This document shows positions 26,810 through 44,559 of a stretch of DNA of 64,000 bases, in pieces. A model generated the notes under the pieces. The model did not search any database. It saw nothing but the letters and a program-made list of their open reading frames with translations, and was not told the DNA's origin. Position 1 is the first letter of the stretch. Each line of letters starts with the position of its first letter. The DNA lies in IMG/VR virus record IMGVR_UViG_3300018890_000001, positions 64,628 to 128,627 of that record; one strand, 5' to 3'. The DNA comes from a virus. The translations under genes were made by a program, and so were the position numbers.

Positions 26810-26830
26810 GTCTCTGAGGGCTTCGCTAAC
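26810..26830 (+). mobile_element. 21-nt small dispersed repeat (SDR-like), copy 1 (degenerate)
   Basis: GGGCGATC|GTCTCTGAGGGCTTCGCTAAC. Confidence 0.65.
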
Positions 26831-26833
26831 AAA

Positions 26834-27400
26834 CTAGCTCACAGGTTGAGCAATTCGCACCGTTGTAGAAGATACTCCCGGAATTGCGGGCTGTTGTACG
26901 GCGACAATTTCTTCTTCGCCCTCATCATCATCCTCGCCACCCTCTTCTTCATCCTCGTCGTCTTCACTGTTGTCAACCGCGATTGTCGGATTTGCAGCAG
27001 CTTCAAGACGTGCTGCTTCACTGCGTTCGGCATCCTTTCCGATCAATAGCGTTCCGTCCTCACCTTCTTTGATTACGACGTAATCACCTGGCTCGCAACC
27101 AACCATCTCAACAAATCGACGGGGAATAATTGCTGCGCCATTTTTCTGGACTTTGAACGAATCTATGTCGCCGCGAGCAGACGCTCTTTGAGTTTCAGGC
27201 AGTACCAGTCCAAAGAATTCTCCTTTTGCCAGAAGCAGCGCTTGGTAATACGCCTGTAAATCCGGCTTGACGCGATCTTCACCACTGCGCGACCGAGTTT
27301 GCTTTGTATAACCTGTTCGCATCGCTAGTTGCGTATCCGCCATTTGTCGGTTCTGATCCACTTCGGTCAGTAACGCGGCACCCGTCAGTTTTTGAGGCAT
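26834..27400 (-). CDS. cyanobacterial AbrB-like (cyAbrB) transcriptional regulator with acidic tail
   Basis: LTGAALL..V...GY...YYQALLLAKG and VQKNG..II......G..PGD pattern of cyAbrB proteins. Confidence 0.8.
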   Translation of the reverse strand: MPQKLTGAALLTEVDQNRQMADTQLAMRTGYTKQTRSRSGEDRVKPDLQAYYQALLLAKGEFFGLVLPETQRASARGDIDSFKVQKNGAAIIPRRFVEMVGCEPGDYVVIKEGEDGTLLIGKDAERSEAARLEAAANPTIAVDNSEDDEDEEEGGEDDDEGEEEIVAVQQPAIPGVSSTTVRIAQPVS

Positions 27401-27574
27401 ATGTCGGAAAAAATATATTTACTAATGTCAGATTAACACAATTATCTAAAATGTTGTCGTTTTGACTATTTTAACGATCGCCGTCAAAAAAAGAGGTGCT
27501 GACCGAAATCAGCACCGCCAAAAAACATCAATGACTAAACTCATCTTAATATCGTCACTTTAAAGACTGACTGG

Positions 27575-27826
27575 TCACGCATCTACATCTTCTTCTTTGG
27601 CAAGTGTTGAGATTAATAGCGCCTCACGATCTCGACAGATAAAGTTAATGGCGTCCAAGAGTGCAAGTTCCGGAGTCTAGAAAACCGCTTCTGATTCCTT
27701 GCATCGCCAATGCCATTCGTATTCGTCGTCGATGGGGGTGATCCTCTTCGAGGGCTACGCTAACGAAATTTCAGTATGCTTGTTGACTTGTTCAATGATT
27801 TGACTGAATTCACTATTATTGTACAT
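27575..27826 (-). pseudogene. small gene broken by the 21-nt insertion and a second TAG
   Basis: MYNNSEF...EIS[LA*PSKR]ITPIDDEYEWHWRCKESEAVF*TPELALLDAINF... Confidence 0.6.
27744..27764 (+). mobile_element. 21-nt SDR-like element, copy 2
   Basis: GGTGATC|CTCTTCGAGGGCTACGCTAAC|G. Confidence 0.8.
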
Positions 27827-27904
27827 TGGTTTTAATATGCTAGTTTGTTGCAATAATATTATATTATTGGTATTATTATAGTGTAGTTCATCTATATCAA
27901 TTGT

Positions 27905-28378
27905 ATGCCATTATCTGACATCAATGTTGATCGTGTATTAACACACCAAGAAGTTGTGACAATGCTAACGGAGGATGCCGTAAAGGAAGATGCCAAGCAA
28001 TCTAGAATACTAAAGCATTGGGATTCTACGTTGAGACACTGGAAACAGTCATCTGGTACACTTGTCACCACTCCGTCGGACAAGGTGCGATCGTTAGTCT
28101 GGAAAGAAGAATTAACTTATATTTTCCAGCTTCGCGAAAATCCAAAAATTAAAATACCTAAACAGTCTTTGGATGGGCGAAAATACGGGTATAGCTACGT
28201 AACAGATTTGTGTCGATTGGCAAAAATGCCTCGGCAATCCCAATTAGAGGGGTTATCAATAGGTGACATTGAAGAGATATCCACGAGGTTTATTATCAAG
28301 GAGTCACCAATAAAGTGTCTTTTGGATGCAGGTTTCACACTGGATCTAATAGTACCTAAAGACTTTTTAGGGCTGTAA
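27905..28378 (+). CDS. hypothetical protein
   Basis: Promoter TATTAT-N6-GTAGT; hairpin at 28383-28422. Confidence 0.7.
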   Translation: MPLSDINVDRVLTHQEVVTMLTEDAVKEDAKQSRILKHWDSTLRHWKQSSGTLVTTPSDKVRSLVWKEELTYIFQLRENPKIKIPKQSLDGRKYGYSYVTDLCRLAKMPRQSQLEGLSIGDIEEISTRFIIKESPIKCLLDAGFTLDLIVPKDFLGL

Positions 28379-28426
28379 ACACAAAAAAGCCGTTAGCGAA
28401 ATTAATCGCTAACGGCTTTTTTGTGT

Positions 28427-29515
28427 CTATTTCAGCGTTCTGAATATCCAGCGACGGAATAACTCGATCACCACCCGATAGGTTTCTATTCCATCTTTGT
28501 TGATCTTTTCAATCAAGCTACCTGCATGGCACTCCATAGCTGCTTGACAGACTTCGTGAACTTGGTTTGGTTTTCTGTCAATATATCGAGCTAATTGATA
28601 CACGGTACACCCGTCAGGATCGTCCGCTAGTTCAACGAGAACCTCTTGCAGCCTTACGTCCCCAAAAACAATCGGTCTGTTGTACAAGCTTGTAAAATAA
28701 GGTCGGTAATTGTCGTAGAATCTTTCCGATGCAGCTATCTCTTCTACATCGTGAACTGTGATGTGACTTAGAACCTTGTGGTCTTCTTCGACCATCCAGT
28801 TGAATTCGCTAATAATATTGGCGCACACACCGCGCACCAACCAAGGGTGTCCGCTACTCAATTCGTATAGGCGATCGATCGCATCAGAATCGAATTTGTA
28901 TGGTTGCTGATTGCAGTATTCAGCCGTCTCTTCCTTGGTGAAAAATCCCAACCACAATTTGCGACTGGGTTTGAAGTCGAGCGTCGCTTGACCAATATCA
29001 GAGCCGATGTCGTGACTACCGCAAAGCAAGAATGCTAGGCGATCGTGTCTCAGTGTTAAAGCTTCAAGCTGTTTCAAAATTGTCGCCGCTGGAATATTCA
29101 GGAAGGCCTCGTACTGATCGATCGCCAGCAACAATTTGCGATCTGGATGCCTGTCTAGCGCTTGTTCTAGATACTTAACAAATGCTGAATAAGGCTTACT
29201 GCGAAAAATAGCAGTGCCTACCAAGACGACAGCATCCATTTTGTCCAAAGCTAGAGCCAACGCCAGCCAAACATCTTTATCTTCTCTGTCGCCACCGAGA
29301 CACTGTAGGCTAGTATATGCGACATCTATTTGCTGACAATGCTTATCAATATGCCAGAGAACTTCGCTTTTCCCAGTAAACCAATCACCCCAAAACAACA
29401 TTGAGCGTGGTGTACCTGCTGGAATTGTCCAGAGTTTCTCAATCTGCTCAAATGCGTATTTGCGACCGATGAAGTTTGTATTGAGGAATTTTTTCGTAGA
29501 ATCTGAAGGATTCAT
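28427..29515 (-). CDS. STAND-like P-loop ATPase (AAA_16/ATPase_2-like) with winged-helix C-terminus
   Basis: FIGR, GDWFTGKS (Walker A), LLLAIDQYE (Walker B), SGHPWL (GxP). Confidence 0.8.
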   Translation of the reverse strand: MNPSDSTKKFLNTNFIGRKYAFEQIEKLWTIPAGTPRSMLFWGDWFTGKSEVLWHIDKHCQQIDVAYTSLQCLGGDREDKDVWLALALALDKMDAVVLVGTAIFRSKPYSAFVKYLEQALDRHPDRKLLLAIDQYEAFLNIPAATILKQLEALTLRHDRLAFLLCGSHDIGSDIGQATLDFKPSRKLWLGFFTKEETAEYCNQQPYKFDSDAIDRLYELSSGHPWLVRGVCANIISEFNWMVEEDHKVLSHITVHDVEEIAASERFYDNYRPYFTSLYNRPIVFGDVRLQEVLVELADDPDGCTVYQLARYIDRKPNQVHEVCQAAMECHAGSLIEKINKDGIETYRVVIELFRRWIFRTLK

Positions 29516-29587
29516 GTTACAAATAGAGTAGCGTACATCTATATATTACACTAAGCGTCGCCATATAAATAGGCGTATCACACTATT

Positions 29588-30544
29588 ATGAATATTGTTT
29601 CGTTGCCAGAATGGAACGCTGTTATCAAGACACCGCTCATTGTATCAACCTATTGGAGCAATGATCTCTTAACGATTGGTAACGGTAGTGCAGAAAAGTT
29701 TGCACTCGATCGCCCAAAAGGAATTTATTATCAAAAACCATACCTAAAAATTGCGACATGGGGCAACCTGTGGACGTTCCGCGAGTACACAGAGTCACAC
29801 ATCACAAGGCAGGTAGACCCCGATTGTGATGCAATCTTCGTACCTAAAAAGTTTGAAGAAACTGGAAACATCGGCAGTAGGGAAATAGCAGGAAATTTTA
29901 TTGCAGCGTCAAAGCTGTCGTGTGTCGTGCAAGTGGATGAGGTATTTACCGTATCCCCGGTTTGGAAACCCGATTGGATTGCAGACGTTGTTCCAGAAGA
30001 CCGCTGCCACGTCAATGGCGTAGCGCTTGACGAGAATGGAAATCTCAAGTACGTCACCGCCCTCGGAACTGGGAACCGCAAAGAAAGTTGGCGAACCGAA
30101 CCCGTTAAAGGCTGTGTTATAGATGTACAGTCCGGGCGGGTGATCGTCGATAATCTACGGATGCCTCATTCACCCAGGACTTATCAAAAACAACTCTGGG
30201 TTTGCGATTCGATGCGTGGCGAACTCTCAATCATTGATGTCAAAGCAAAAAAGCGACAACCGTTTGTTCGTTTTCCCGATTTCGTCCGTGGTTTGGCATT
30301 CTGGGAAGACTGGGCGATCGTCGGATTGTCAAAGATGCGGTACGCCAAAGGGTCTTGGATTAAAGCGGGTGATCGGTGCGGACTTGCTGCTGTAAATTTA
30401 AACACGGCAAATATTGACGCGATTCTAGTGCTTAATTATGATGAAATCTTTGATGTTCAAGTGCTGCCATTTAAAAATCCCAAAATATTAGACCCGCGAG
30501 CTAGTGTATTAGATTCATTATTAATTTTACCTGCGTTTAACTAG
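29588..30544 (+). CDS. TIGR03032/DUF4915 family beta-propeller protein
   Basis: PEDRCHVNG, YVTALG, MPHSPR, FVRGLAF, AIVGLSK. Confidence 0.85.
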   Translation: MNIVSLPEWNAVIKTPLIVSTYWSNDLLTIGNGSAEKFALDRPKGIYYQKPYLKIATWGNLWTFREYTESHITRQVDPDCDAIFVPKKFEETGNIGSREIAGNFIAASKLSCVVQVDEVFTVSPVWKPDWIADVVPEDRCHVNGVALDENGNLKYVTALGTGNRKESWRTEPVKGCVIDVQSGRVIVDNLRMPHSPRTYQKQLWVCDSMRGELSIIDVKAKKRQPFVRFPDFVRGLAFWEDWAIVGLSKMRYAKGSWIKAGDRCGLAAVNLNTANIDAILVLNYDEIFDVQVLPFKNPKILDPRASVLDSLLILPAFN

Positions 30545-30595
30545 ACTTTTTTGTCTAAAAAACATAAAATAAAAATATAGTTTATCCTTCTGGTT

Positions 30596-30931
30596 ATGAA
30601 CGCAACAAAAAAAGTCAAAGCCAAAACGTGGATCGTATGGGCTGAAGAGCTAAATACAAGATCGAAGCACACGTTTGAAGTATACGAGTTCCAGAACGGA
30701 CTAATCATGAGTCCAAACAGCAGTTGTAATGACGAGTGGTTTGCAGTCAGTAGTGAAATCGAAGCAAGCGGGAATTCTGTGATTACAGTCATAGAATCCA
30801 AAGAAACCGAAGTGGAATTTAGTGAAAAAGAATTGATCGATTCATTCCTTGGTGCTGGCGGAGAATGGGGGTTTGGTGACTTACCAATTCAAAAATTCTT
30901 AGAACTACTGCTTGTTTTTTACGAAAACTAA
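30596..30931 (+). CDS. hypothetical protein (family with 31493 and 48443)
   Basis: KKVKAK...YEFQNGLI. Confidence 0.7.
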   Translation: MNATKKVKAKTWIVWAEELNTRSKHTFEVYEFQNGLIMSPNSSCNDEWFAVSSEIEASGNSVITVIESKETEVEFSEKELIDSFLGAGGEWGFGDLPIQKFLELLLVFYEN

Positions 30932-31030
30932 CAATTCATCTGCAAGACACGTTCTAAAAATGTACTAACTCAAAAAACCGGATTATCTTATTTTGAGATA
31001 ATCCGGTTTTTATTGGGTACTGCAATCAAT

Positions 31031-31070
31031 TAGACAAATTTAATTAGCCATATTATAATAGTAAAGTAGT
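31031..31070 (+). promoter_or_regulatory. promoter TAGACA-N17-TATAAT-N6-GTAGT (example of the recurrent class)
   Basis: Direct sequence match. Confidence 0.75.
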
Positions 31071-31091
31071 CGATATTTCAGGTAAAAATCA

Positions 31092-31406
31092 ATGACAACT
31101 CCAAATACAAAACCCATTGTTTGTAGCACTCATGCACTTATCAGCGTCGAGGACGGTGTGCAGTATTTTGCAGTACCCGAAGATTATGTAACATTCCCCA
31201 AACAAGTAATGTGGGTTGCATTAGGTGACAAGGTGAAGTGTTGGATCGAAGTGTTTTCTGTGGGTTCAGATGACTCCGAAGGTATTAACGACTTCAGTGA
31301 AGACCTAGAAGTTACCGTCAATATCGATAGTTCTTTTTTTCCGCCAAGTACACCAAACTGGGCAATTGTAAATTGGCGTTGGTTTACGCTCTTGACTGAT
31401 AGCTAA
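31092..31406 (+). CDS. hypothetical protein
   Basis: Own promoter. Confidence 0.7.
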   Translation: MTTPNTKPIVCSTHALISVEDGVQYFAVPEDYVTFPKQVMWVALGDKVKCWIEVFSVGSDDSEGINDFSEDLEVTVNIDSSFFPPSTPNWAIVNWRWFTLLTDS

Positions 31407-31492
31407 TTAACGCATCAAAACGACTGCGTATATCTAATAGATATATGCGGTCGTTTTCTGTATAATAGATTTGTGGTCTCGGTATTCTCAAA

Positions 31493-31828
31493 ATGAATAG
31501 CAAAAAAATAAAAGCCAAATCATTAACTATCACGATCAAAGCGCACGATGGTGGCGAACACGCGGTTTTTGGGTACAAATTTACCAACAAGCTCATTTTA
31601 ATCCCTGGTGTAGAAGATGACCCCGATATATTTTTTGAGAGTCTTGGGGTTTTAAAATTATCGACTTCAAAGGGTGCTACCGTTTCAGTAGAAGAAGGAT
31701 TAGAATTGGAAATGACTGAATCGGATCTACTTAATTCGGTCATGAAGATAATGGTGAAGAATGGTAGTCGCTGCATTCCAATGGAGCGCATTCTTCACTT
31801 ACTGTGGCAAGTTCATTCTTCCGATTAA
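31493..31828 (+). CDS. hypothetical protein (family with 30596 and 48443)
   Basis: KKIKAK...YKFTNKLILIP. Confidence 0.7.
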   Translation: MNSKKIKAKSLTITIKAHDGGEHAVFGYKFTNKLILIPGVEDDPDIFFESLGVLKLSTSKGATVSVEEGLELEMTESDLLNSVMKIMVKNGSRCIPMERILHLLWQVHSSD

Positions 31829-31932
31829 TTTCTGTAAAGAAGTTGAAAAAACCAAGTTATTCAGTGCGAACTAACTTGGTTTTTTCGTTTCGATCGCTCG
31901 CACCAATGCTTACTTGCTAAGATACGTGCAAA

Positions 31933-32667
31933 TTGAATTCAGGAGTTTACCAAATGGATATACCAAGTACGTTCGAGATATTGAAACAAATTGCTATCAA
32001 AGAGGGTGTTTACAAGGAAGGTGATACCGAAATCACATTACAAAGAAAGCTTAGGCCGAAGCGCCATCAGGGAATGCAAACACGATATTTATTTGACAAA
32101 AACGAAAGTCCGAAAAATCTACCACCGCGCCCTCATGAATTTAGCTGTATCACAACTTGCGCTTTGAGGTATGCACATAACAGCACTGATGTGCAGGCGA
32201 CTGGCTTCTGCATTGATGCCACGATGAAAAACTGGAACTGGTTATCAAGTCAAGATAAAGCTGTTTTGCGTCGGGATACCGAAGAGGCTCTCGAAATGTC
32301 TCGTCGATATCGCGAGATAACAGGAAACTATGAAGTTGCATTTTTGTGTGCATTCGAGGAATGGGAAGCGTTTGATCGCTGGTTAACTGACTCAGAGCAG
32401 CAGGTAGTTTATCCACCCAAAGGCGAAGTGTACGGAGTGGGATTACTGACAGTTTACGCTCTGCGTTACTGCGTAGGTCGCCAGACTTATATGCCTAGTC
32501 TGATCGCGGATGCTACCAAAAAGAACTGGCATTTACTCAACAGAGTTGACCGTCGGACGATTCAGCAAGATACGATTGGGGCGATCGCCACCCGACATTT
32601 GGGTGCAACGTGCGATCGGGAAACCTGGCTAGGGTTTAATGAGTGGGTTGCCACACAGATGAAATAA
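31933..32667 (+). CDS. hypothetical phage protein with duplicated ALRY domain
   Basis: CALRY...DATMKNW vs YALRYCVGR.TYMPS...DATKKNW. Confidence 0.7.
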   Translation: MNSGVYQMDIPSTFEILKQIAIKEGVYKEGDTEITLQRKLRPKRHQGMQTRYLFDKNESPKNLPPRPHEFSCITTCALRYAHNSTDVQATGFCIDATMKNWNWLSSQDKAVLRRDTEEALEMSRRYREITGNYEVAFLCAFEEWEAFDRWLTDSEQQVVYPPKGEVYGVGLLTVYALRYCVGRQTYMPSLIADATKKNWHLLNRVDRRTIQQDTIGAIATRHLGATCDRETWLGFNEWVATQMK

Positions 32668-32714
32668 AAAAAAGACCGTCCGAGACTAATCGGACGGTCT
32701 TTTTTTTAACTAAA

Positions 32715-33421
32715 TTAGTTCACTGGCGGCGGAACCAGATTTGAAACAGTCGAGTTAACTGCCCGCAGTGGTCGTGGCTCGTCGCTCGGTTTGGCTACCA
32801 ACCGCAGGTTGATTATGACTTGGCGACCGTAATCGCGATCAATAGCTCCAGCCCTACCGAACTTCTGGTCCGATCGCCCACTCAATCCGGTGCCACCGGC
32901 ATTGCGCGTATTCAGGTTGACGCTTTGCCCACCAGCACCACCTCGTGAACCAGACGAGAAGCTCTCCTGCTGCCAGTCGCCTCCCTTCATTGCTCCACCA
33001 CCTTTGGCACCAGAGTAGGATCTAGTAGTGTCAATCGCAGAGATACCATGATGTTGGGTTTCTCTGGGATGAACGTAATTTTGACTAAACCTAAATCTGA
33101 ACGGGCGATCTCACTCAAGCCGACCTTCTGCGCTTCACGGGAACCGATTTCGTAGAAGGTGAACTTCCCTGTATCATCTGCCGGATGCTCAAGTGTTGCT
33201 GTTTGATAAGACGCTAGTCGCCAACCACCAACTTCCTTGCCGTCGATCTCAATAATTACGTCATTGGCTTCATCGGTGTGATTTTTCAAAAAAATATGAT
33301 AGACATCCCCATGTTGCAGATAAACGTATCCATGCTCATCTTCATGCGGATGATGCCCGTCAGCACCCCATCCCGTAGGAATTGATCCAAGAATTCGAGC
33401 TTCTTTTTGAGCTAAGCGCAT
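32715..33421 (-). pseudogene. conserved hypothetical gene split by a -1 frameshift near 33055-33065
   Basis: IDGKEVGGWRL...TGKFTF continues in the other frame as TRSYSGAKGGGAMKGG...AGGTGLSG.S.Q.F. Confidence 0.65.
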
Positions 33422-33526
33422 AACAAACCTCAATGTATTTTTATCAATATAACACACATTCGTGTTATACAACAAAGCCAATCACTTATTTTGTACGAGT
33501 GATTGGTTTTGTTGTATAAAATTGAA

Positions 33527-33970
33527 TTATTGTTTTGGTTCCGAATCAGGTAGCTTTTCGATCTGCTCTGGAGTTTCTGGCAGTTCTGCTGACGGTGGCT
33601 GACCGGCTAAATGAGTTTCCGACGTGGGAATAGGTTCCGGAGCTGATCCTCCAGAAGCTTCAGGAGCCGGGACAGGTATTAAGTCTTTGGGCAAGAGTGC
33701 CGGAGCATCCAACACGTAAGGATCTTGGGGCGTTACGTTAGCTCCCGACTGTGGTGCTGCTGTATCGACTTGGACTGTGGGAATCGATGACGGTAAATCC
33801 ACAGCAAGTGCTGTTTCACCGGGCTGCTGGTATGCGGGTAGTCCGTGCACGATCGGCGCTACAGGAACTGGAGTTGCCGGAACTTCGGCATGGGGCATAT
33901 CCGGAGTCGTTTCTTCAGGCTGTGCTGCCTGTACGGGATCTTTTTCTGACTTCTGCTCTTCTTCAGGCAT
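33527..33970 (-). CDS. Pro/Glu/Ala-rich low-complexity protein
   Basis: 147 aa, biased composition. Confidence 0.6.
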   Translation of the reverse strand: MPEEEQKSEKDPVQAAQPEETTPDMPHAEVPATPVPVAPIVHGLPAYQQPGETALAVDLPSSIPTVQVDTAAPQSGANVTPQDPYVLDAPALLPKDLIPVPAPEASGGSAPEPIPTSETHLAGQPPSAELPETPEQIEKLPDSEPKQ

Positions 33971-34146
33971 GAATTTTTACCAAAATTTTGAAAGGGAGCG
34001 ATCAAATTATACGTTAAGACGTGACCGCCACTTCAGCGCCTTTGGGCTGAGGAATATCAAATCGGTTGCGGGCGATTGGCAGACTCGACTGACTAGCAAA
34101 AAAAATAACCCGCCCTCAATGGAGAACGGGTCTAAAGTCAAGCTAT

Positions 34147-34419
34147 TCAGTACGTTACTGAGGGTGTGATTTGATGGAGTCTTTTGAACTCCCTTTCGTC
34201 AGCCTTAGTAGTTGGCGCAAACAGATGTGGATTATCAAGCTGAACAGCGTATAACGCCGCTTTAAATAACCACCAACTTTGTTCGTCTAGCGGACGATCA
34301 GAATCCAAACCCATATCTACGTACTGCTTGACCTTCTTTTCGATTAAAACCTGCAACAAAGCGAAAGTTTCTTCGGCTCGCGAAGCAACTTGTTTTTGCA
34401 CTTCTTGTTGTGAAAGCAT
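34147..34419 (-). CDS. hypothetical protein
   Basis: Promoter TTGACA-N17-TATGAT-N6-GTAGT. Confidence 0.75.
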   Translation of the reverse strand: MLSQQEVQKQVASRAEETFALLQVLIEKKVKQYVDMGLDSDRPLDEQSWWLFKAALYAVQLDNPHLFAPTTKADEREFKRLHQITPSVTY

Positions 34420-34480
34420 AATTGATTAATTTGCGACTACAAAATTATCATATCAAGGCAACAAGAAAGTGTCAAGCAAA

Positions 34481-34690
34481 TTATGGGCGATCAAAAACAC
34501 GCTCTTCTTCTGGTGCGAACCGATCGCCCGCAGCACCAATACTTTCTCCGCCAAGTCCGATACGCAGCTCGTTATGAGTAATCGCGCCAATGCGGTACAG
34601 CGTATTCATTTTTACTAAATGAGCCATTTCCGCTTCACTTAATAACCGAGATTGCGAAAGCGATTGCAGTTTGTCAAATATTGATTTCAT
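34481..34690 (-). CDS. small protein resembling the portal C-terminal segment
   Basis: ITHNELRIGLGGESIGAAGDRF vs portal ATRNEMRLATGLQPIGPAGDKF. Confidence 0.6.
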   Translation of the reverse strand: MKSIFDKLQSLSQSRLLSEAEMAHLVKMNTLYRIGAITHNELRIGLGGESIGAAGDRFAPEEERVFDRP

Positions 34691-34694
34691 ATTT

Positions 34695-35891
34695 TTAAGC
34701 AGGAATTACTTCTAAACTCGACTGTACCTCGAACAATGTCCACGGGTTGACTTCTATCTCGGAGAGCGGTTGCCCTGTGAACGAGTTTTTCAATTCAGTC
34801 TTCGGCACCGAATAAATACCTTCAGCTTTTTCGAGCTCACTGGCAAGCGTCTTATGAAATTCGAGATCTCCCCAAATCCCAAAAGGTGGATTGATCGCAT
34901 CGACGATCGTCTGGGCAACAAGGTTAAACCGCTGCTGCTGTGTCAAATCCCGCACAAAACCGACAGTTACTTTGCCGTCGATTGGAATGATTTCTGCCGC
35001 CCTGAATTCCAAAGGTTGTGATTCCATCGCCAGCGGGCGTGTTTTCTCTTCAACGACAGCGACCTGCTGTTCAGGCCAAACGGCAACGGTCACTAAATCG
35101 GTCCAGTGTCCGACAGTTCCGTACTGAGATGAGAGCACCAAAGTTTTCTTGCTACCAAATTCTTGAGCAGCCAAGTAGTAATCTTCTTTATTGACGACGC
35201 GCCCGATTTGGGCGGAAGTAAGATTTGGTGCATTACCGCGTCGGAATCTGTTGCGCGCTCTGATCATCATGTCGATTAGCGTTTCGCGATCGCGCCCTTC
35301 AGAAACAGCAGTTCCATCGTTCGCGACTCCAGATACGTTTGCCAGTAGTCTGGGTAAAACAGAAAACTCACCGGGGATTAAACCAGGGAGTGTACCAAGT
35401 CGGTTGATCCTGGCCGGTACAACTTTGAACTCGTCCGATCCGAATATGCGATCTTCTTTAATCGTGTAAGCGGCCAACGTGTTGTCACGAGAACTCCGCA
35501 CTTCCATGTTGTAAGGAATATCGACCGCGAGTCCAGATCGCATCGCATCAGTCGATCGCCGAAACACTAAATTAATTACTGGATATTCGGCTAACTGCCG
35601 CTCTACGCCAAGCATCCGAAACATCTGCACCCACTCCCAGTCGGGTTTTAGATTCAGTTCATATGCCAGATACTGCATCTGGGCGATCGTTGCCGACGCC
35701 AATATAACGTGCCCTGCTCCGGGTGCCATTGAAGAAAACGGAGAAGGTTCGCCACTGGGTAGTGGTTGTGCCAGTTGGTTTACGTAATTTGCGAGTTGCT
35801 GACTTGGATCGTAATCCCAAAGCTTGTCCGCTTCAATTAAATTCGCTTCAGATTCGAGGCGACGCATTAACTCGAAGTGTTCATCGTACAT
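34695..35891 (-). CDS. baseplate J/gp47-like wedge protein
   Basis: MLGVER..AEY..L.F; EGRDRET..M..RA; RVVNKEDY..AA. Confidence 0.8.
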   Translation of the reverse strand: MYDEHFELMRRLESEANLIEADKLWDYDPSQQLANYVNQLAQPLPSGEPSPFSSMAPGAGHVILASATIAQMQYLAYELNLKPDWEWVQMFRMLGVERQLAEYPVINLVFRRSTDAMRSGLAVDIPYNMEVRSSRDNTLAAYTIKEDRIFGSDEFKVVPARINRLGTLPGLIPGEFSVLPRLLANVSGVANDGTAVSEGRDRETLIDMMIRARNRFRRGNAPNLTSAQIGRVVNKEDYYLAAQEFGSKKTLVLSSQYGTVGHWTDLVTVAVWPEQQVAVVEEKTRPLAMESQPLEFRAAEIIPIDGKVTVGFVRDLTQQQRFNLVAQTIVDAINPPFGIWGDLEFHKTLASELEKAEGIYSVPKTELKNSFTGQPLSEIEVNPWTLFEVQSSLEVIPA

Positions 35892-36142: not shown

Positions 36143-36236
36143 ACTTGCATATCTTGAGACTACAATGCGAGTTTAACACTATGGACTTGATCGCCCCCTT
36201 GTTACGCTAAAAGCGTGATCGCCGGAAAATCAACGT

Positions 36237-36542: not shown

Positions 36543-36575
36543 TCGATCACCCGAAACTCCTATTATTTACACCTT

Positions 36576-37646
36576 TCAGAACGGTAGTACCGCATCCAAC
36601 GCCCACGGGGGTGCCATTTCCGACAACCACAGTTCCGTCTTACCAAGTTGTTCTTCCCACCAGACGATCGCCCGCTCAGTTTTCTCCATCGCCCACGCGG
36701 GCACTGTAACCGAAGCTTCTTTCTCAACTTTGACGCGCTCTGCCGGCGGTACTTTCATAGATCTTCTAACCATCGTTGCCAGTGGAATCGTCGCCACAAT
36801 CTTTTCGACCAGCAATGCCAAACCACCTGAGACGATAATTTCTGGTTCTACAAGATCGAAGGTTTCAGTAGCTAGGATTTCTTCGGGTGGGCGATCGGGT
36901 TGTTCTTCTTGGAGTTTCTCGAAAGCTTGCTCTGCCTGCAACATTTTATAGTTGGTGTTGACGATTTGAACTACATCCGGCAGCGGGCGATCGGCGATCG
37001 GTTCAGTGCGACGACCCCAGCGAGCAATGCCCTTAAACACCATGTTGAACAGTGCGACTAGCGTGTACGCCTTATGCTCTGGGAGGGATTTCGATTCGTC
37101 GCGTACTGTCGGGTAGTTCCCGTTTCCAATTTCTTTCGACCAGTCCAAACGCATTTCTTCGAGGCTGTAGTGTTCCAGCAAGATTAATTCACAGCGCTCT
37201 GCCAGAATTAACGCAGCTACAGCATCAAAATTAGTCATCACGTTGGGCTGCTTATTGCGATTCTTGGGGATTTTGCGGGATTCGTGGCGATCTTCGAGAT
37301 TGTAGAGCTTGAAGGTTTCGCTCAGATCGTGTCGCACCTTGTCAACAGTACCCTTTGCTGTATGACAATAACCTTCCCAGTGCGCAGACAGGTACGTCAT
37401 GATACCTTCCATCTTTACCGGAACCGCCAAGGGCTGCACCAGATCGTTGATATTTTTCTGGTCGTAGTCCCGCAATCCCTTGCTACCATGCTTGCCGCTG
37501 ATTACTTTTACCTGGCGACCGGCTACATACAAGGCATGATTGAGGATTCCAAAAATTGTGAAAATCTTTGTAATGCTTTTCCCGTTTAGCTTTGCGTCGA
37601 ATTCTTGGGAAAGAGCATTGATCTCTTGCTCGGTTCTTGCTATCAT
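36576..37646 (-). CDS. hypothetical protein
   Basis: 356-aa ORF; C-terminus duplicated at 39395-39673. Confidence 0.75.
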   Translation of the reverse strand: MIARTEQEINALSQEFDAKLNGKSITKIFTIFGILNHALYVAGRQVKVISGKHGSKGLRDYDQKNINDLVQPLAVPVKMEGIMTYLSAHWEGYCHTAKGTVDKVRHDLSETFKLYNLEDRHESRKIPKNRNKQPNVMTNFDAVAALILAERCELILLEHYSLEEMRLDWSKEIGNGNYPTVRDESKSLPEHKAYTLVALFNMVFKGIARWGRRTEPIADRPLPDVVQIVNTNYKMLQAEQAFEKLQEEQPDRPPEEILATETFDLVEPEIIVSGGLALLVEKIVATIPLATMVRRSMKVPPAERVKVEKEASVTVPAWAMEKTERAIVWWEEQLGKTELWLSEMAPPWALDAVLPF

Positions 37647-37825
37647 GTTGTTAATTAAATGAATATTACTTGGACTGCCCGATACCTTTAACGAGGTCGG
37701 GCTATTTTTTTGAGCGTATCCTGAAAACCTGCGGTAGTTGTCTACCTGTATATAGGGTACACCAGGGTTTAAATTGATGCAATTAGGTATAAATACGTAT
37801 TTAACGATTTTGCGTCGTTTCAGCG

Positions 37826-37951
37826 ATTGACCACTTAAACATCTTCAATCCGTTTTGGATTTTCTTTATTTCTTACTCTTTTGTTTTTGGACAAAATTTT
37901 AACAAAGAAGAAAAACACCTTTGCAAGCTTAAGGATGTTTAAGTGGTCAAT
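37826..37951. repeat. 18-bp perfect inverted repeat around a 90-bp AT-rich spacer
   Basis: ATTGACCACTTAAACATC (37826-37843) / GATGTTTAAGTGGTCAAT (37934-37951). Confidence 0.9.
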
Positions 37952-38072
37952 TTGGTTTTAAGCGAACCCAACAGCATTAAAACGGACACAGCTTTAGGTT
38001 GCGGACTCTACAGTTTGGGATGGGCGGGCGATCGATTGTTATCATAAAACCACTGTCACCGGAAAATTAACA

Positions 38073-38258
38073 ATGAATATTGAACTAACACAAGAGCAGG
38101 TTGAATTTGTAGAACTTACCATAGCTAGCGGACAGTACGAAAGTGTTGAGCAAGTTGCAATTCAGGTTTGGGCGATTGGGATGAAGGAAGTCATCAAGTC
38201 GATCGCCCGAGAAGTCGAACTACAACACTTGCGAGAGCGTCACGAAACTTATCGATGA
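38073..38258 (+). CDS. ParD-like antitoxin paralog
   Basis: MNIELTQEQVEFVELTIASGQYESVEQV; leader similar to that of 36237. Confidence 0.7.
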   Translation: MNIELTQEQVEFVELTIASGQYESVEQVAIQVWAIGMKEVIKSIAREVELQHLRERHETYR

Positions 38259-38271
38259 GAAAGGGAAGAAG

Positions 38272-38555
38272 ATGGCAGACACCCCAAAATTTCTGTAAAT
38301 TTTAAAAATACTGATGAACGCGGGCGTATTTATCTAAACAGCCCATGTACACTTGGAGATTTGTACGATCAGGGTGTCGATCTAATTGATGGTATGATGC
38401 TGATAGTGTGCGATCAAGGAGTAGAAATCGAGGGTGTTGTCGAATACTCAGAAAAAGATGCGTATTATGTTGCGGTAGTTAATTGGGACGGTGTTAACGT
38501 AAATCGCGATTTTCCTGAGCAGCATCGATTTTTTTTACAGGTCGCCAAACCATAG
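38272..38555 (+). pseudogene. conserved hypothetical gene with a one-base deletion at the A4 run 38286-38289
   Basis: Restoring one A gives MADTPKISVNFKNTDERGRIYLN...VEIEGVVEYS. Confidence 0.55.
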
Positions 38556-38625
38556 AGGAAGTTAAGACAGCATAAAAAACAAAATCCCCTCAAGTTTTTT
38601 AATCTTGAGGGGGTTTTGTTTTTTA

Positions 38626-38946
38626 TTAAGGTTGTGGAAAATCAGTTACGATTTCAACGGTAACATCTATTTCTTGACCTACAGCGTCCGCGACCATGCT
38701 CTGTGTGGATGTTTGATAGCTTTCGCAAATTCCGGTGAACCGTAGCGTTTTGGGCTGTCCGGGTCTTGAAATTAATCTTAGATCCCTGGTATTTAGCCAG
38801 AAATCAGATGCTATATTCCCGCCTTCGAGAAAGTATATTGTCTCTTCAGGTGTTACTGTCACGCTGCTTACGTCTACATATAATTTTTGGTCTTTTTCAA
38901 CTTCTTTAATCATTGTGCGACTTGCGATGCTGATTTGTAATTTCAT
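38626..38946 (-). CDS. hypothetical protein
   Basis: 106 aa, hairpin at 38577-38622. Confidence 0.65.
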   Translation of the reverse strand: MKLQISIASRTMIKEVEKDQKLYVDVSSVTVTPEETIYFLEGGNIASDFWLNTRDLRLISRPGQPKTLRFTGICESYQTSTQSMVADAVGQEIDVTVEIVTDFPQP

Positions 38947-39070
38947 TGTATTACGCTATTGGTTGATAATTAATTATACAATTTTAAATAAATTAACACA
39001 AGTATTTTCGATCGCCCACCACATTATTTGTTATACTGAGTCTGTAATTACGTATGTCGAGGAATCTCAA

Positions 39071-39367
39071 ATGAATATTTTGTTAACACCAAAACAGGAA
39101 GTTTTCGTTCAATTGCAGATTCAAGGTGGAGAATACGAAAACGTAGATCAAGTGATCGAAGCTGCGTTATTGCTTTTGCAACAGCGTCATCAGTCCCTTG
39201 ATAGTATTCGTCAAAAAATAGAGCTTGGGGCTGCTCAAATTCCTTTGGGTCAAACTACCGATGGTGCGCAGGTATCCGATCGCCCGCAACAAAAGTTGGA
39301 TAGTGGGCGATCGCGACTGTCCCTCGAAGAAATGCGGAAAATGATAGGCACGGATAAGCCTGCCTGA
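39071..39367 (+). CDS. ParD-like antitoxin paralog
   Basis: MNILLTPKQEVFVQLQIQGGEYENVDQVIEAALLLL...IRQKIELG; GAGG RBS. Confidence 0.8.
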   Translation: MNILLTPKQEVFVQLQIQGGEYENVDQVIEAALLLLQQRHQSLDSIRQKIELGAAQIPLGQTTDGAQVSDRPQQKLDSGRSRLSLEEMRKMIGTDKPA

Positions 39368-39394
39368 GTTGCTGTAGCGTTAGCTTGGGGCGTC

Positions 39395-39673
39395 GTGTTA
39401 GTTTTCGTCGATCGCCCGGGCATCAGGAATTCCTCTAAGCAAATCTCGATCGCCAGCGCTTTAATCCAATGCTGTATGAGAGTGCCTGCCCAGAAGTCTG
39501 TCAAAAAAGAGAAAGTGTTGACAGTTCCGGTGTGGACGATCCTCTCCGAGGGCTTCGCTAACGAACAATCCGAGCGGGCGATCGTTTGGTGGGAAGAAAG
39601 GATCGAAAATTCAGGACTGTGGTTATCTCAACTTGCGCTTCCGTGGGTTTGGGATGCCGTTTTACCGTTTTAA
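39395..39673 (+). pseudogene. C-terminal fragment paralogous to 36576-37646, carrying a 7-aa SDR insertion
   Basis: TVPVWTI[LSEGFAN]EQSERAIVWWEE...DAVLPF vs TVPAWAMEKTERAIVWWEE...DAVLPF. Confidence 0.7.
39542..39562 (+). mobile_element. 21-nt SDR-like element, copy 3
   Basis: ACGATC|CTCTCCGAGGGCTTCGCTAAC|G; absent from the paralog. Confidence 0.85.
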
Positions 39674-39682
39674 GGAGATCTT

Positions 39683-39910
39683 GTGAGATTCAACGCAACC
39701 GAAGATCGGATCAAACAAATTGTGGTGAATGCCTGCAAAACACAGTTACCGCTCGTTTGTAAAAACTTGAAGCCAGAAGATATAGAACTTGACGATCGCG
39801 GATTAGTTATAGCAGATAGGGTTAAGTTGATTATCCGAAGAGCTGGCGCGTATAAATGGGAAATTGATGATGAAATAGATCGAGGTTGGCATGGATGGGT
39901 CGATATCTAA
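39683..39910 (+). CDS. hypothetical protein
   Basis: AAGGAG RBS with GTG start. Confidence 0.6.
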   Translation: MRFNATEDRIKQIVVNACKTQLPLVCKNLKPEDIELDDRGLVIADRVKLIIRRAGAYKWEIDDEIDRGWHGWVDI

Positions 39911-39975
39911 CCAACAGCGACCGCGCTCGTAGATTCTGTGTTGAAAATCAATAACTAAAAAAGGAGATTAAATTC

Positions 39976-40206
39976 ATGACATTTATTTACAACAAGGCGT
40001 TGGGTTGTGCAGTATACAATCCGCTACTAACGGGATTTGAACTCAAGCACAATTATTTTGTTATTTCTGAAGAATGCAAAAACTCTTTAATTTATTTGCA
40101 AAGATGGGCGATCGAAAGTAACGGTCGTGAGATATTTAATTGGGCGAATTTAGTGACTGTGGCGGATCAAATAGGACTACCATCAGAACAACTTGTGAAT
40201 TCTTAG
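39976..40206 (+). CDS. hypothetical protein
   Basis: AAGGAG RBS. Confidence 0.6.
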   Translation: MTFIYNKALGCAVYNPLLTGFELKHNYFVISEECKNSLIYLQRWAIESNGREIFNWANLVTVADQIGLPSEQLVNS

Positions 40207-40323
40207 AAAAGTGGGGGAAGGTGCGCGACGGTTTGTTTGAAGCGAAGAGGTTAACATCCAGACAAATTCGCGAACAAGTTGAAAAAGGCAAGAAGAAGGT
40301 TTTATCATAATTCCGATCGCCCA

Positions 40324-40581
40324 CTACTGTCTTTTGTGCCAATTATCGGTTTTCGTCTGCAAGTTTAACCAAATCTGAGCATCCATGAATAACGCTTTAC
40401 CGATCGCCAATGCTGTATCTTGGGTGATCGGTTTTTTATTGTCTATGATATCCCTTAGATCGTTAACCTCAATTCTGCTCATCCTTGCAAACTCAGTAAG
40501 CGTAATTTGGTTATCTTCGAGTATATCTGCGAGGATTTCACCGGGAGTGACGGGTGAAACTTTCCGATCTTCAATACTCAT
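40324..40581 (-). CDS. higA: HigA-family antitoxin (HTH)
   Basis: PVTPGEIL...ITQDTALAIGKAL...QIWLNLQ. Confidence 0.85.
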   Translation of the reverse strand: MSIEDRKVSPVTPGEILADILEDNQITLTEFARMSRIEVNDLRDIIDNKKPITQDTALAIGKALFMDAQIWLNLQTKTDNWHKRQ

Positions 40582-42026
40582 ATTTTTCCGTTGGTTGTGC
40601 CCCTGGCTTTTGCCGGAACGGTTTGCGCGGAAGCTGCTTTCCCTGGGATATTGGTTTTCGAGGCGATCGCCTTAGAACCTTTCTCGATCGTCACTTCTTC
40701 GACTACAGCACCATCCTCTTCGGGAATAGCCTTCTCATCTTTTGGTGGTTTTTCTGGACCTGGTGGCAGAGCTGCTTCTTGTGCCGGTTCGCCTTCGAGT
40801 CCAGTGCCATCCATAAATTTGTCGCCGGCCGGTCCAATCGGTTGCAGCCCTGTAGCAAGACGCATCTCGTTTCGCGTCGCCAAATTTTTCTCGAACAGCA
40901 TTGTCGCTCGGGTCGCTTCCTGTTCTTCGGTACGCTTTTCTAAGTCGGCGTATTCCTTTGTAAAACCGGGTTCGTAGTAGTTTACAAGTTCTAGGTTTTC
41001 GTGCTCGTTGAGGATGTTGGCGATAGGAACCACACCTTCTTGGTAAGATGCGTCTGCCGACACACCAGCGGTGGCATACGTGAATTGTTCGTGGCCCAAG
41101 TCTTTGGGTGTTAAACCGAACGGCATACAGATTAATCGCAGTAGTAACTCAGTCCAACCGAGATAAAGCTCACCGTCGCTCGAAGCACCGAGCGTGACGA
41201 CCTTAATCAAACCTTTGCCTCCGGCGATCGGTGTTTGACCGTCGATCTCTACTTTCGTGTTCCAGTAATCTCGAAACGCATCGAGTTCTACTTGGGTTAC
41301 ATCTCCGATGTCGAGGATGTACTTGGCAGAAACTTTGGAAGTCGCGTTGTGCTGGAAGTTGTTGAGCGCCAACCAAGACAGTACATACGGAAACGCGATC
41401 TCGACAGGTGACGGCGGCATAAGCTCGTAAGAAGCGCTGTCGATCTGCATAATGTACATATCTTCGTCAGCCAGCAACTCCTGCGTAGTGTAATCTTTGC
41501 GGTAGAGGTAGCGAGCTTCTTCTGGATTATCCTGCCAAACAGGATTGAATTCTATTTTGGCGGCATCGATACAGAAAGCAAAAAACCTGCGGATGCTTTT
41601 ACTATCTCTTTTTAATAAATCATCGTTACCGTGCATCCGCTGTATCGCCGCGTAGTTAAGCGTCAAAAGGTCTTTAACGACAGCGTTTGTATATTTTGTA
41701 TAAGTATTTTGCGCAAGCTCATAATTAGGTCGGAGCAAGCTGCCTTTTATTTCTTCTGCTCGTTGAATTGCCCCTGGTTTTTCGCGGTCTTCCTTGGGTG
41801 GGCTGATATGCCACGGCATGAGTGATACGCCGCGCTGAATTCTCTGGATGCACTTTGCTACTGGTCCGACGCGGGTGGTCGTTCGCAACAGCTCGAACGA
41901 GGGACGCGCTCGCAAGCGCACCGATTTCTGAAACTCGATCGCTGGGTCGATTTCTGGATAGTGTGGGCGTGGATTGTGAACGTGCGGTCTTAAAAAAACT
42001 AATTTTCCGCGAGTATTTGCAGGCAT
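40578..42026 (-). CDS. phage portal protein
   Basis: SPVE, ICMPFGLTPKDLG, TYATA, TRNEMR...GLQPI..GD motifs; likely start MPANTR. Confidence 0.85.
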   Translation of the reverse strand: MPANTRGKLVFLRPHVHNPRPHYPEIDPAIEFQKSVRLRARPSFELLRTTTRVGPVAKCIQRIQRGVSLMPWHISPPKEDREKPGAIQRAEEIKGSLLRPNYELAQNTYTKYTNAVVKDLLTLNYAAIQRMHGNDDLLKRDSKSIRRFFAFCIDAAKIEFNPVWQDNPEEARYLYRKDYTTQELLADEDMYIMQIDSASYELMPPSPVEIAFPYVLSWLALNNFQHNATSKVSAKYILDIGDVTQVELDAFRDYWNTKVEIDGQTPIAGGKGLIKVVTLGASSDGELYLGWTELLLRLICMPFGLTPKDLGHEQFTYATAGVSADASYQEGVVPIANILNEHENLELVNYYEPGFTKEYADLEKRTEEQEATRATMLFEKNLATRNEMRLATGLQPIGPAGDKFMDGTGLEGEPAQEAALPPGPEKPPKDEKAIPEEDGAVVEEVTIEKGSKAIASKTNIPGKAASAQTVPAKARGTTNGKI

Positions 42027-42094
42027 ATATAAAAAAAGAAGTCGAGCGTTCTTGTTCGCGCAACCTCCGACTAAGATTAGTTGGTATTCTGTGA

Positions 42095-42511
42095 TTGTAT
42101 TCCTTCTTCCTAATTCAAGCATACGCTACGGACAGCTTGGATAGTGCCAGAATATTGGTATCTCAATTTTTACCAAAAATGTTTGAAATTTCTAATGGTG
42201 CCACCAAAGTTTGTTTGATCTCCCTTGCTGATGTAGAAACCTCCCAAGATATCGCCCCCATCAAAGCCGAATTTTCGACCGACAACAAAGATTTGATCAA
42301 TGAATTTCGCTACTACTACTGCACCACACCAGGGTCTTTTGGTAAGTGCATGGGCGACGCTCTGGCGAAAAGTCCACCAAATTGGGGTCTGAGTGACTTC
42401 GATAATTTAGAGAAAATCCTGACGAATTTCCCTAAGCCTTGGCGCGTCAAAGTGGGAGATCGACCGAAACATGACCCATTTATTCCGCCCGACAACGGAG
42501 CTATTTACTAA
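42095..42511 (+). CDS. hypothetical protein
   Basis: 138 aa, coupled to the next ORF. Confidence 0.55.
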   Translation: MYSFFLIQAYATDSLDSARILVSQFLPKMFEISNGATKVCLISLADVETSQDIAPIKAEFSTDNKDLINEFRYYYCTTPGSFGKCMGDALAKSPPNWGLSDFDNLEKILTNFPKPWRVKVGDRPKHDPFIPPDNGAIY

Positions 42512-44225
42512 TGAGCTATGCGCTGTTTCAAATTCAATGTCGGGCGATCGAACTTACGCTGGCACTATCTGAGCGCGAATATCTACGATATCCACCAGGG
42601 ACGATTATCGACGGTGTGAATGTGGGTGGTCAGTTTGCCAATGGCAAGAAATCTGGTAGTGCAGCACCACCAAAAGAAAAGACCGTCACTGAGCAGAAAC
42701 CACCGCCTTGGGTGAAAACTTTGGAGAAAGCTTTTGCTCAAGGCAAGGGCTTGGAGGAAAAGGTTGGGCGCGTCGTAAATCAGATATCAAACGAAATTAC
42801 GACACAGTACGGTATAAAACCAGAGCCGACGATCGCCCAACCTGAAAAAAAATTTACCGAAAAACTCAGAGAAGCTGCTGCCAGGTATGGATTAATTGAA
42901 GCGCAACTGTCGAAAGCGACGCCGGACAAGCAGAAGGTTTTGCTCGAAGACTTGATTAAAGCTTCTATCCCACTTGCTGTTGCTGTTTCATTGACCGTTG
43001 GTGCTGAGGTGGCGATCGGACTATTCTTGGGCCAGACCGTTGGGGAATTGTTGATTGGGTCGTCGATCGGTTTAGGGGTGTCGGTCGGTGTCGATAAAAG
43101 TTTGGACTTAGCAAAGGTTGAAAACCCGATCGTCAGAGCCGGACTTCAACTCGCTGCCGGTGTCGCGACTGGTGGCATTGTCAGCAAAGTGGCGAGAGCC
43201 TCAGCTTTGAATTTTGGGAAGTTCAGCGAAACAGCCAAAGAATTTATTGAGCAAGCGACTGTCGTTCCTGGTATCCGATCTAAAATCAAAAATCCATATA
43301 GAACCGCTGCGGTACTTGACAAAGACGGTATCGATTCTCAGAAAGTGTTGGATGCGCTGCGTCGTGAAGTGGAACAAGAAAAAAGAATAGTACCAGAGCT
43401 GCGGACGCCCCATACCTTCTCAAAACGACTTGATGAATATGTCGAACTTTCTCTAGCCAAGAAAACAGGCGTTGGAACTGACTGGCGCAAAGGTATTGTG
43501 GATGCTGAGCTTAAATATGGAGAGGCGATCGAGAGAATTCATTCTGTTGCAATTAAAGATGCTTTCACTCCGGGAACCGAAAAAGTCTATCAAGATTTTT
43601 TATCAACAATTAAAGCTGGCAAGAAGGGAAGCGCGAATGTGATTGAAGCCAATCCAGACGAAATAGATGCTGGAGTTGGCGCTAAATTAATTACTAAAGG
43701 TAAACGTAAATATAAAGGCTACGAATTCGATATTGAAGATCGCCTCCGTGAAGTTCGTCAAGCGACAACTGAAGCATCTCGATTGTCTAATGTTGATTTA
43801 GGGGATATTTATGTTGGACATATTGAAGGGAAAGGCTACAATGCGACACGCGGTTTTATGGTTAAGGTTGATAGTGTCAAGTATATGGGATTGGTTTTAT
43901 GCACGATAGTCGATATTTAGCATTTCATGAAACAGGTCATTTTATTGAAGATGCTAAAAAACTTGTTGATACCTCAGTTGACTACATCAATAATCGCAGT
44001 GATAGCGCATACACTGCAATTATTGATGGTCAAAAACAGAAATTCACTGATTTTCTAAATTTGTACACAGGCAAAACTTACGGAGAAATTGGCGCAGAGC
44101 GAGCAACTGAGGTTGTTTCTACTGGATTGGAAAATTTATCGTCATTCCAAAGAGTACATCGGATCGCCCGCGAAGATCCAGATCACTTGCGATATACGCT
44201 ATTTGCGCTCGATGCTACCAATTAG
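42511..44225 (+). CDS. head-associated protein with C-terminal HExxH domain, split by a -1 shift near 43887
   Basis: RYPPGT..GGQF N-terminal motif; second frame FHETGHFIE...TEVVSTGLE. Confidence 0.55.
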
Positions 44226-44559
44226 CTATCTCATCCTTGTCCTGGCGCTGCGAGAATGCAACAGATTGCGAAAGGATCAAGTCCGGATACATGGATTGCA
44301 GGCGATCGAATTCTGCGATAGTTTCCGTGTCGTCGATCGCCACCAATAAGTAAGGATTAGTCTCTCTGAACAAAGCGCGCTCGTTCTTCCTAGCTAGTTT
44401 GCACAGCGAGTTTGCCCAGAGTGTCTGAGTGGATTGCTGGTGATCCTCTTCGAGGGCTTCGCTAACGGGACTAAATAAGCTGCGAATCAACTCGATCTGT
44501 GTGCAGGCGTAAGATAATTTATAGCTTTGATATCGATACATAAATTTGTAATTAAACAA
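44215..44559 (-). CDS. hypothetical protein with in-frame SDR insertion (VSEALEE)
   Basis: ORF stays open across the 21-nt insertion. Confidence 0.5.
   Translation of the reverse strand: MFNYKFMYRYQSYKLSYACTQIELIRSLFSPVSEALEEDHQQSTQTLWANSLCKLARKNERALFRETNPYLLVAIDDTETIAEFDRLQSMYPDLILSQSVAFSQRQDKDEIANW
44446..44466 (+). mobile_element. 21-nt SDR-like element, copy 4
   Basis: GGTGATC|CTCTTCGAGGGCTTCGCTAAC|G. Confidence 0.85.

Follow-up and report, generated by a model that had tools for sequence, protein, structure and literature searches.

A probable 21-nt mobile element in HIP1 cores of a tailed phage and of Microcoleus/Tychonema-type cyanobacteria

Heterocystous cyanobacteria carry SDR5, a 21-nt repeat associated with the palindrome HIP1 (PMC13756078), and its insertion point has been placed precisely between HIP1 bases 3 and 4 (PMC4390886). 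SDR-like repeats were not found outside Nostocaceae (PMC5861425). Here, we analyzed a 21-nt element that resembles SDR5 and occurs four times in 64,000 nucleotides of viral DNA (the window), that is, positions 64,628 to 128,627 of IMG/VR record IMGVR_UViG_3300018890_000001. The phage genome that holds the window (G000) is 199,763 bp long. The four repeats very probably represent a non-autonomous mobile element that is native to the Microcoleus/Tychonema-type hosts of this phage and forms a diverged sister family of SDR5. RNA intermediates have reportedly been proposed for SDR repeats by Elhai et al. 2008.

For comparison, an SDR5 sequence was obtained by scanning the Nostoc punctiforme plasmid pNPUN01 for GCG-N21-ATCGC. 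The whole plasmid yielded a recurrent 21-mer and its variants in the form GCG[TAGGCGTAGCCCGCCGTAGGC]ATCGC, and no SDR5-type 21-mer was found in its first 50 kb. Both elements are 21 nt long, lie inside HIP1 at GCG^ATCGC (with a 1-nt ambiguity in our case) and cause no target duplication. Both carry two C-GNA-G triloop hairpins, with a nearly identical first half (T..GC-GNA-GCCC), and reach tens to hundreds of copies per genome. The window element also shows presence/absence polymorphism, which indicates recent mobility in phages and in hosts. However, the second stem of the window element is CTC/GAG, not GCC/GGC, and stands 1 nt nearer the first, which has 2 bp as against 3 in SDR5. The window element is found in Microcoleus/Tychonema-type Oscillatoriales, whereas SDRs have been reported as confined to Nostocaceae (PMC5861425). 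It also differs in occurring in phage genomes and in a target relaxed to (G)CGATCG; searches of the literature for cyanophage HIP1 or phage-borne SDRs returned nothing relevant. Ungapped, the window element and the plasmid 21-mer TAGGCGTAGCCCGCCGTAGGC are identical at 11 of 21 bases, and therefore the former belongs to a sister family and is not SDR5 itself. Judged by its sequence, it is a divergent SDR5-like repeat that inserts into phage genomes, and its host clade had no earlier report of such repeats.

REP/REPIN-RAYT systems also consist of short, non-autonomous hairpin repeats dispersed in tens to hundreds of copies, for which single-stranded DNA (ssDNA) handling is presumed (PMC3116915, PMC6006769). 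However, REPs are mostly extragenic, are longer, flank a RAYT gene and have no palindromic target (PMC3116915, PMC6006769), whereas about 60% of the window-type copies lie in open reading frames (ORFs), and Y1 genes do not adjoin the copies and are absent altogether from one copy-rich carrier. Elements of the IS200/IS605 group (IS608, ISDra2) are likewise inserted 3' of a fixed target of 4-6 nt without duplication and have hairpin ends. They measure 1-2 kb, with miniature forms above 100 nt, whereas the window element has 21 nt, encodes no transposase and is without demonstrated replication-strand bias. GNA-triloop DNA mini-hairpins of the d(GCGAAGC) type are said to have been described by Hirao and colleagues and to occur at the origins of phages G4 and phiX174. 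Our element contains GCGNAGC exactly and closes its second hairpin with C-GNA-G as well, the loops varying in their middle base only; however, the earlier motifs are single ones at replication origins, and ours are dispersed insertions.

Copies in the phage and empty sites in a relative

The degenerate 21-mer CTCT-N-CGAGGGCT-N-CGCTAAC has four matches in the window, all on the plus strand (Table 1), against 0.01 expected from dinucleotide-preserving shuffles. GATC stands immediately 5' of every copy. The original prediction, which had been made from the window, described the same four co-oriented copies directly after GATC, and our searches of the window and of the whole genome bear it out: up to five mismatches were allowed in G000 and no further copy appeared. 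A scan of G000 for other double C-GNA-G motifs, or for hairpin-bearing HIP1 inserts of 21, 24 or 27 nt, returned only the known copies. The consensus CTCTTCGAGGGCTTCGCTAAC is that of copy 4, from which copies 2 and 3 depart by one base each and copy 1 by three.

A related phage (G001; IMG/VR contig 3300032431_000001, 188,399 bp, with direct terminal repeats and estimated to be complete) is syntenic with G000 at 65-80% nucleotide identity. At the locus of copy 1 this relative shows an exact 21-nt gap and an intact, perfect GGGCGATCGC, and at the loci of copies 3 and 4 it has precise 21-nt empty sites (TGGGCGATCGAAAAA and GGCGATCT, respectively). The region of copy 2 cannot be aligned with G001, and hence no empty counterpart was identified for that copy. 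We also found the reciprocal case: G001 has a copy of its own at GGCGATC^GTA where G000 reads GGCGATCGTA, with homology on both flanks. The search for empty sites that the original prediction had recommended was thus successful for three of its four copies and, in addition, for the converse. Altogether the two phages differ by four exact 21-nt events, none of which is common to both.

In these alignments the inserted segment is exactly 21 nt and the target is not duplicated. Because one C is shared, the junction can be written as GAT^CG or GATC^G (C^GATC or CG^ATC on the other strand). The comparison indicates that at least three insertions took place in the G000 lineage after its split from G001, and that G001 gained one itself.

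It is very improbable that the copies came into the phage without any insertion into its DNA, as passengers on recombining host fragments in which the element was already present. The phage does have further traits derived from its host, strong HIP1 enrichment among them. However, the DNA on either side of copies 1, 3 and 4 is that of the phage and stays collinear with G001 as far as the 21 nt, and the reciprocal site in G001 shows the same exact-21-nt pattern. This explanation was rejected on account of the phage flanks.

The 21-mer might instead be a conserved functional site of the phage (protein-binding site, terminator or packaging signal) that does not move, an idea which we find hardly credible. 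Clustering and co-orientation of the copies in 17.6 kb round structural genes would fit it, as would the terminator hairpin beside copy 1. However, two copies lie within reading frames, and in the hosts this sequence is dispersed through genes in either orientation. A conserved regulatory site was rejected because the sites are missing from the syntenic relative.

The original prediction held that the element adds seven residues to proteins. Copies 3 and 4 are indeed in frame and would each lengthen the predicted product by seven amino acids. For copy 4, the expected VSEALEE was recovered in a small ORF (MYRY...IANW), and the G001 orthologue (MYRYKKY...IGNW) is conserved over its full length without these residues. 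No Pfam family matches this ORF. For copy 3, the seven codons are absent from the 356-aa ORF on the minus strand and from a third paralog outside the window (PAWAMEKTERAIVWW vs PVWTI[LSEGFAN]EQSERAIVWW). Thus the internal control by a paralog was upheld with both full-length paralogs, but the gene that carries copy 3 is a remnant and not full-length: tblastn aligns it solely with the final ~74 residues of the 356-aa paralog, and its orthologue in G001 is full length. The family, of ~350 aa, has three members, with loci that include window 38735-39673 and genome 131448-132470, and no Pfam match. The further claim that copy 2 breaks a small gene found no support. Its removal turns a 32-codon frame into one of only 51 codons, which is without homologue and lies in the region that is unalignable with G001.

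Copies placed at GCGATC^G were also found in other phages, namely IMG/VR 3300032431_000006 (three copies) and 3300048516_000008. Three related IMG/VR contigs with 39% GC (L167, L172 and L176) have a full copy, CTCTACGAGGGCTACGCTAAC, at TTAATC^GA in one shared locus, a site that was either hit off-target or has since decayed. A search with the copy-4 protein produced no more phage relatives, and a 20-kb megablast against the phage collection produced no match.

G001 differs from G000 in other respects. It holds a reverse-transcriptase ORF (G001:C1:57964-58644, in a 590-aa open frame) and an IS200-type Y1 transposase ORF (G001:C1:83500-83853, 174 aa), both absent from G000, and so it has been invaded by further mobile elements too. 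Beside the site that is empty in G000 and filled in G001 (genome ~32655-32907, outside the window), ~1 kb in G000 corresponds to ~145 bp in G001, and an HNH-endonuclease-like motif (CHRDGN..LNN) lies downstream of this difference. It may be a homing-endonuclease indel.

The element in cyanobacterial genomes

In a collection with one genome per prokaryotic species, the element was found at at least 120 loci, and among the matches listed almost all belonged to Microcoleus, Tychonema, Lyngbya and Oscillatoriales. Among 401 sampled cyanobacterial genomes, 20 carry 15-56 copies each and the remaining 381 carry none; a control with the reversed pattern gave 0. Five genomes of the Microcoleus/Tychonema/Oscillatoriales type have 21-31 exact-pattern copies each. 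A blastn search of the element against plasmids returned chance matches only.

The target was analyzed for 109 distinct host copies. GCGATC stands upstream of 78 of them and CGATC upstream of about 100 (~92%). The base after the copy is G in 107, and the next one is C, G or A, with T very rare. The full HIP1 form GCGATC^GC was present at 28 of the 109 copies, and the CGATCG core at >90%. The GATC preference seen in the window therefore extends to further copies, as the original prediction required. The flanks are asymmetric: position -6 is G in 79% of the copies, compared with a background of 51% round CGATCG, and position +2 is loose.

Polymorphism was also observed in the hosts. One locus is filled in two genomes and is an intact GGCGATCGC in six aligned genomes, the difference being exactly 21 nt. 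A seventh aligned genome is empty at this locus, and there a different HIP1, at a distance of 60 nt, has received an insertion independently.

Sixty-five of the 109 host copies (~60%) lie inside open frames of at least 150 codons. They read LFEGFAN (20 copies), LAKPSKR (18), SSRASL (16) or VSEALEE (11), with 36 in sense and 29 in antisense orientation, and only these four stop-free frames are used. Because 21 nt make seven codons and only two of the six frames contain stops, genic insertions survive as additions of seven residues.

In the first host scan all positions were fixed except the Ns, and variation confined to the loops was therefore re-measured with three mismatches allowed. In the complete Microcoleus chromosome G003 this gave 28 copies, 17 forward and 11 reverse. 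Their substitutions are concentrated in the loops, with 16 at the two middle loop bases and 9 over the other 19 positions.

The original prediction had placed an SDR5-related element, colonising this phage, in the context of Nostoc. Colonisation is supported by the empty sites and the reciprocal case, but the family is of the Microcoleus/Tychonema type and only 11/21 identical to the Nostoc 21-mer. The long residence in the host that had been deduced from it was not borne out, since repeated infection would account for the copies equally well.

Hairpins and possible routes of insertion

On the strand with GNA loops the window element reads GCG[TTAGCGAAGCCCTCGAAGAGG]ATCGC. Its layout is GCG^[TTAGC-GNA-GCC-CTC-GNA-GAGG]^ATCGC, that is, two C-GNA-G triloop mini-hairpins within the HIP1 core (G)CGATCG. 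The pair of reverse-strand mini-hairpins that the original prediction had pointed out is thus present as sequence, and it is backed by covariation across related families. Compared with two stems of 3 bp, the window family has only 2 bp in its first stem and a second stem shifted by 1 nt.

We searched for relatives with a wide pattern that imposed only a split HIP1 and two C-GNA-G motifs, leaving the outer stem pairs free. It matched in 61 of 301 sampled cyanobacterial genomes (~1,370 matches; ~8 in the reversed control). The copies reach 190 in one genome and comprise several sequence families and hybrids. Although the pattern did not impose them, the outer stem pairs are complementary in every family listed; the second-stem pairs include CTC/GAG, GCC/GGC, GTC/GAC, AAC/GTT, ATC/GAT, TCC/GGA, ACC/GGT and CGC/GCG. 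Covariation was estimated from 20 copies chosen for diversity and not for pairing, the two closing pairs being fixed by the search pattern. We found that 99.2% of the cells pair, compared with 12-42% in slid controls, and that all four free pairs are doubly changed. Cells changed on both sides number 28, against 6.0 +/- 2.2 in shuffles, and none of 500 shuffles reached the observed score.

Six Microcoleus genomes (G003, G012, G223, G155, G069 and G195) have one or two SDR5-type copies each besides their own family, together with hybrids whose first half is Microcoleus-like and whose second stem is GCC/GGC as in SDR5. The sequences of these hybrids hint at modular exchange between families. In a large cyanobacterial chromosome (G267:C1:4597897-4598135), SDR5-type units are arranged in tandem at a spacing of 42 nt, and similar tight clusters exist in G173 contig C22. 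The G267 21-mers match those recovered from Nostoc punctiforme.

Insertion of the element is precise, duplicates no bases and targets the HIP1 core specifically. Both orientations are seen, chromosomes as well as phages are hit, and genes tolerate the event. G000 has no match to a reverse transcriptase (PF00078) or to a Y1 transposase (PF01797), and for this reason a host factor acting in trans is the simplest reading. A host-encoded factor probably inserts the element in trans into replicating phage DNA. As for the route, one strand of the HIP1 core would be nicked in a sequence-specific manner, the folded 21-nt single strand would be joined at the nick, and the opposite strand would then be copied. 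This scheme of three steps is offered tentatively, as something possible and short of probable. A folded ssDNA intermediate is nevertheless favoured over RNA-templated copying, because the conserved loop G and A and the free middle base fit the C-GNA-G DNA mini-hairpin, which is said to be very stable.

Copying from RNA, which seems doubtful to us, would use the transcript of a filled site as template and a HIP1 nick as primer, and a reverse transcriptase would copy the 21 nt in a target-primed manner. It would agree with the RNA intermediates reportedly suggested by Elhai et al. 2008. The stems of the GNA strand contain four G-U-type wobble pairs, reverse transcriptases are present in one carrier genome (G241), and a palindromic target would permit either orientation. 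However, the host ORFs show no sense-strand bias (36 vs 29), and this weakens any route that depends on transcripts. Moreover, the overlap of primer and template would be just 3-5 nt, and C-GNA-G triloops are reportedly best known as stable DNA mini-hairpins and not as RNA motifs.

It is also conceivable, though unlikely, that the repeats are a REP-like or IS200/IS605-derived hairpin element, carried as an ssDNA circle by a host Y1 HUH transposase (TnpA/RAYT) and inserted 3' of a short target in the lagging-strand template. Such an enzyme would explain a precise, duplication-free insertion adjoining a fixed short sequence ((G)CGATC^ in ~92%), the asymmetric flanks described above and an element built of hairpins. 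The junction of SDR5-type copies, G^TAGG, resembles the 5' GT[AG]G of REPs (PMC6006769), the window family having G^TTAG, and Y1_Tnp genes occur in four of five carrier genomes tested. However, a six-frame search of G241, which has 118 double-hairpin copies, gave no PF01797 match, and the phage with four copies is also without a Y1 gene. In G003 all Y1 genes are >16 kb from any copy, whereas REPs flank their RAYT gene, and no simple orientation switch on the scale of replichores is apparent along G003 or G267. The absence of Y1 genes from G241 and from the neighbourhood of copies weakens a RAYT- or IS200-type route. Of the co-occurring HUH or recombinase enzyme that the original prediction had proposed to look for, no Y1 (PF01797) member was found in G000 or in the 118-copy genome.

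Some points weigh against a mobile element that is inserted in trans through single strands. The four phage copies are clustered in 17.6 kb of 200 kb (P ~0.003 given the CGATCG positions) and have a single orientation, which a purely random process in trans does not predict. Precise excision in G001 could replace insertion in G000, but is a less parsimonious account of the alignments. The SDR5 consensus comes from a plasmid (pNPUN01) and may differ from that of Elhai et al. 2008. A single-strand route coupled to replication may be disfavoured by two chromosomes, G003 and G267, which show no simple two-arm pattern of orientation when followed along their length without mapped origins; along G267 the strands are interleaved over 4.9 Mb with some local runs. 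Finally, nearest-neighbour DNA folding does not favour the two mini-hairpins (z = -0.4 to -1.4), a result that is uninformative because the DNA parameter set has no GNA-triloop term.

More broadly, double C-GNA-G hairpin 21-mers could be a phylum-wide superfamily (~20% of the sampled cyanobacterial genomes, and phages) that is written into the HIP1 core by a HIP1-specific activity, neither a Y1 HUH enzyme nor a conventional retroelement. This would tie the abundance of HIP1 to a DNA editing that also acts on incoming phage DNA. We put this forward with little confidence. If it were true, the clustered and co-oriented phage copies would mark a region exposed to the HIP1-specific insertion activity during infection.

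Genomic surroundings and implications

The copies and the genes around them are listed in Table 1. The presence of a portal protein gene indicates that the window belongs to a tailed-phage genome.

Table 1. Copies of the 21-nt element and neighbouring features (window coordinates)
Feature	Position	Strand	Remarks
Copy 1	26810..26830	+	degenerate GTCTCTGAGGGCTTCGCTAAC, at GCGATC^A; intergenic, just after a conserved terminator-like hairpin
MazE/AbrB-like DNA-binding protein gene	26834..27400	-	PF04014, E = 4.9e-7; stop 3 nt from copy 1
Copy 2	27744..27764	+	loop-2 variant GCTACGC, at TGATC^G; ORF-poor stretch 27400-27905
DUF4915 protein	29588-30544		PF16261, E = 2.4e-72; between copies 2 and 3
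Baseplate-wedge-like gene	34695..35891		tailed-phage feature
Full-length paralog, 356 aa	36576..37646	-	insertion-free; internal empty-site control (TGGGCGATGGAG)
ParD-type antitoxin gene	39077..39367	+	PF03693, 26.1 bits (cut-off 21); fills the position of the missing N-terminus of the copy-3 gene
C-terminal remnant, 92 codons, of the three-member phage gene family	39395..39673	+	carries copy 3 in frame
Copy 3	39542..39562	+	loop-1 variant CTCTCCGAG, at CGATC^G; adds LSEGFAN in frame
Portal protein gene	40578..42122	-	PF04860, E = 8.6e-12; phrog_2662; between copies 3 and 4
Small phage ORF	44215..44541 (ORF 44215..44559)	-	carries copy 4 as an in-frame 7-residue insertion
Copy 4	44446..44466	+	at TGATC^G; same sequence as the most frequent host variant; read on the minus strand, inserts VSEALEE

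The genome of this phage is rich in HIP1: GCGATCGC occurs 61 times across G000 (~2 expected from base composition) and CGATCG 488 times (~37 expected), a palindrome signature common to phage and host. GGATCC is present once in 200 kb, and the other NGATCN hexamers number 31-488 each; this scarcity suggests that a BamHI-type restriction site is avoided. The occupancy of CGATCG in G000 is 4/488, roughly 5 times that in G003 (28 copies at an estimated 17,000 sites). A replicon of 200 kb with 488 candidate sites is a far smaller insertion target than a polyploid chromosome of 6-8 Mb.

SDR-type repeats are candidates for the smallest known mobile DNA, and a sister family beyond Nostocaceae widens their range. 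The reciprocal, dated insertions in two related phages, together with the lack of a reverse transcriptase and a Y1 gene in G000, point to a host process that acts in trans. A 21-mer that is specific to one lineage (15-56 copies in genomes of the Microcoleus type and none in 381 others) can aid the assignment of uncultured phages to their hosts. The element may also be a natural source of in-frame insertions of seven residues: long ORFs contain about 60% of the host copies, and a conserved ORF of the phage contains another copy.

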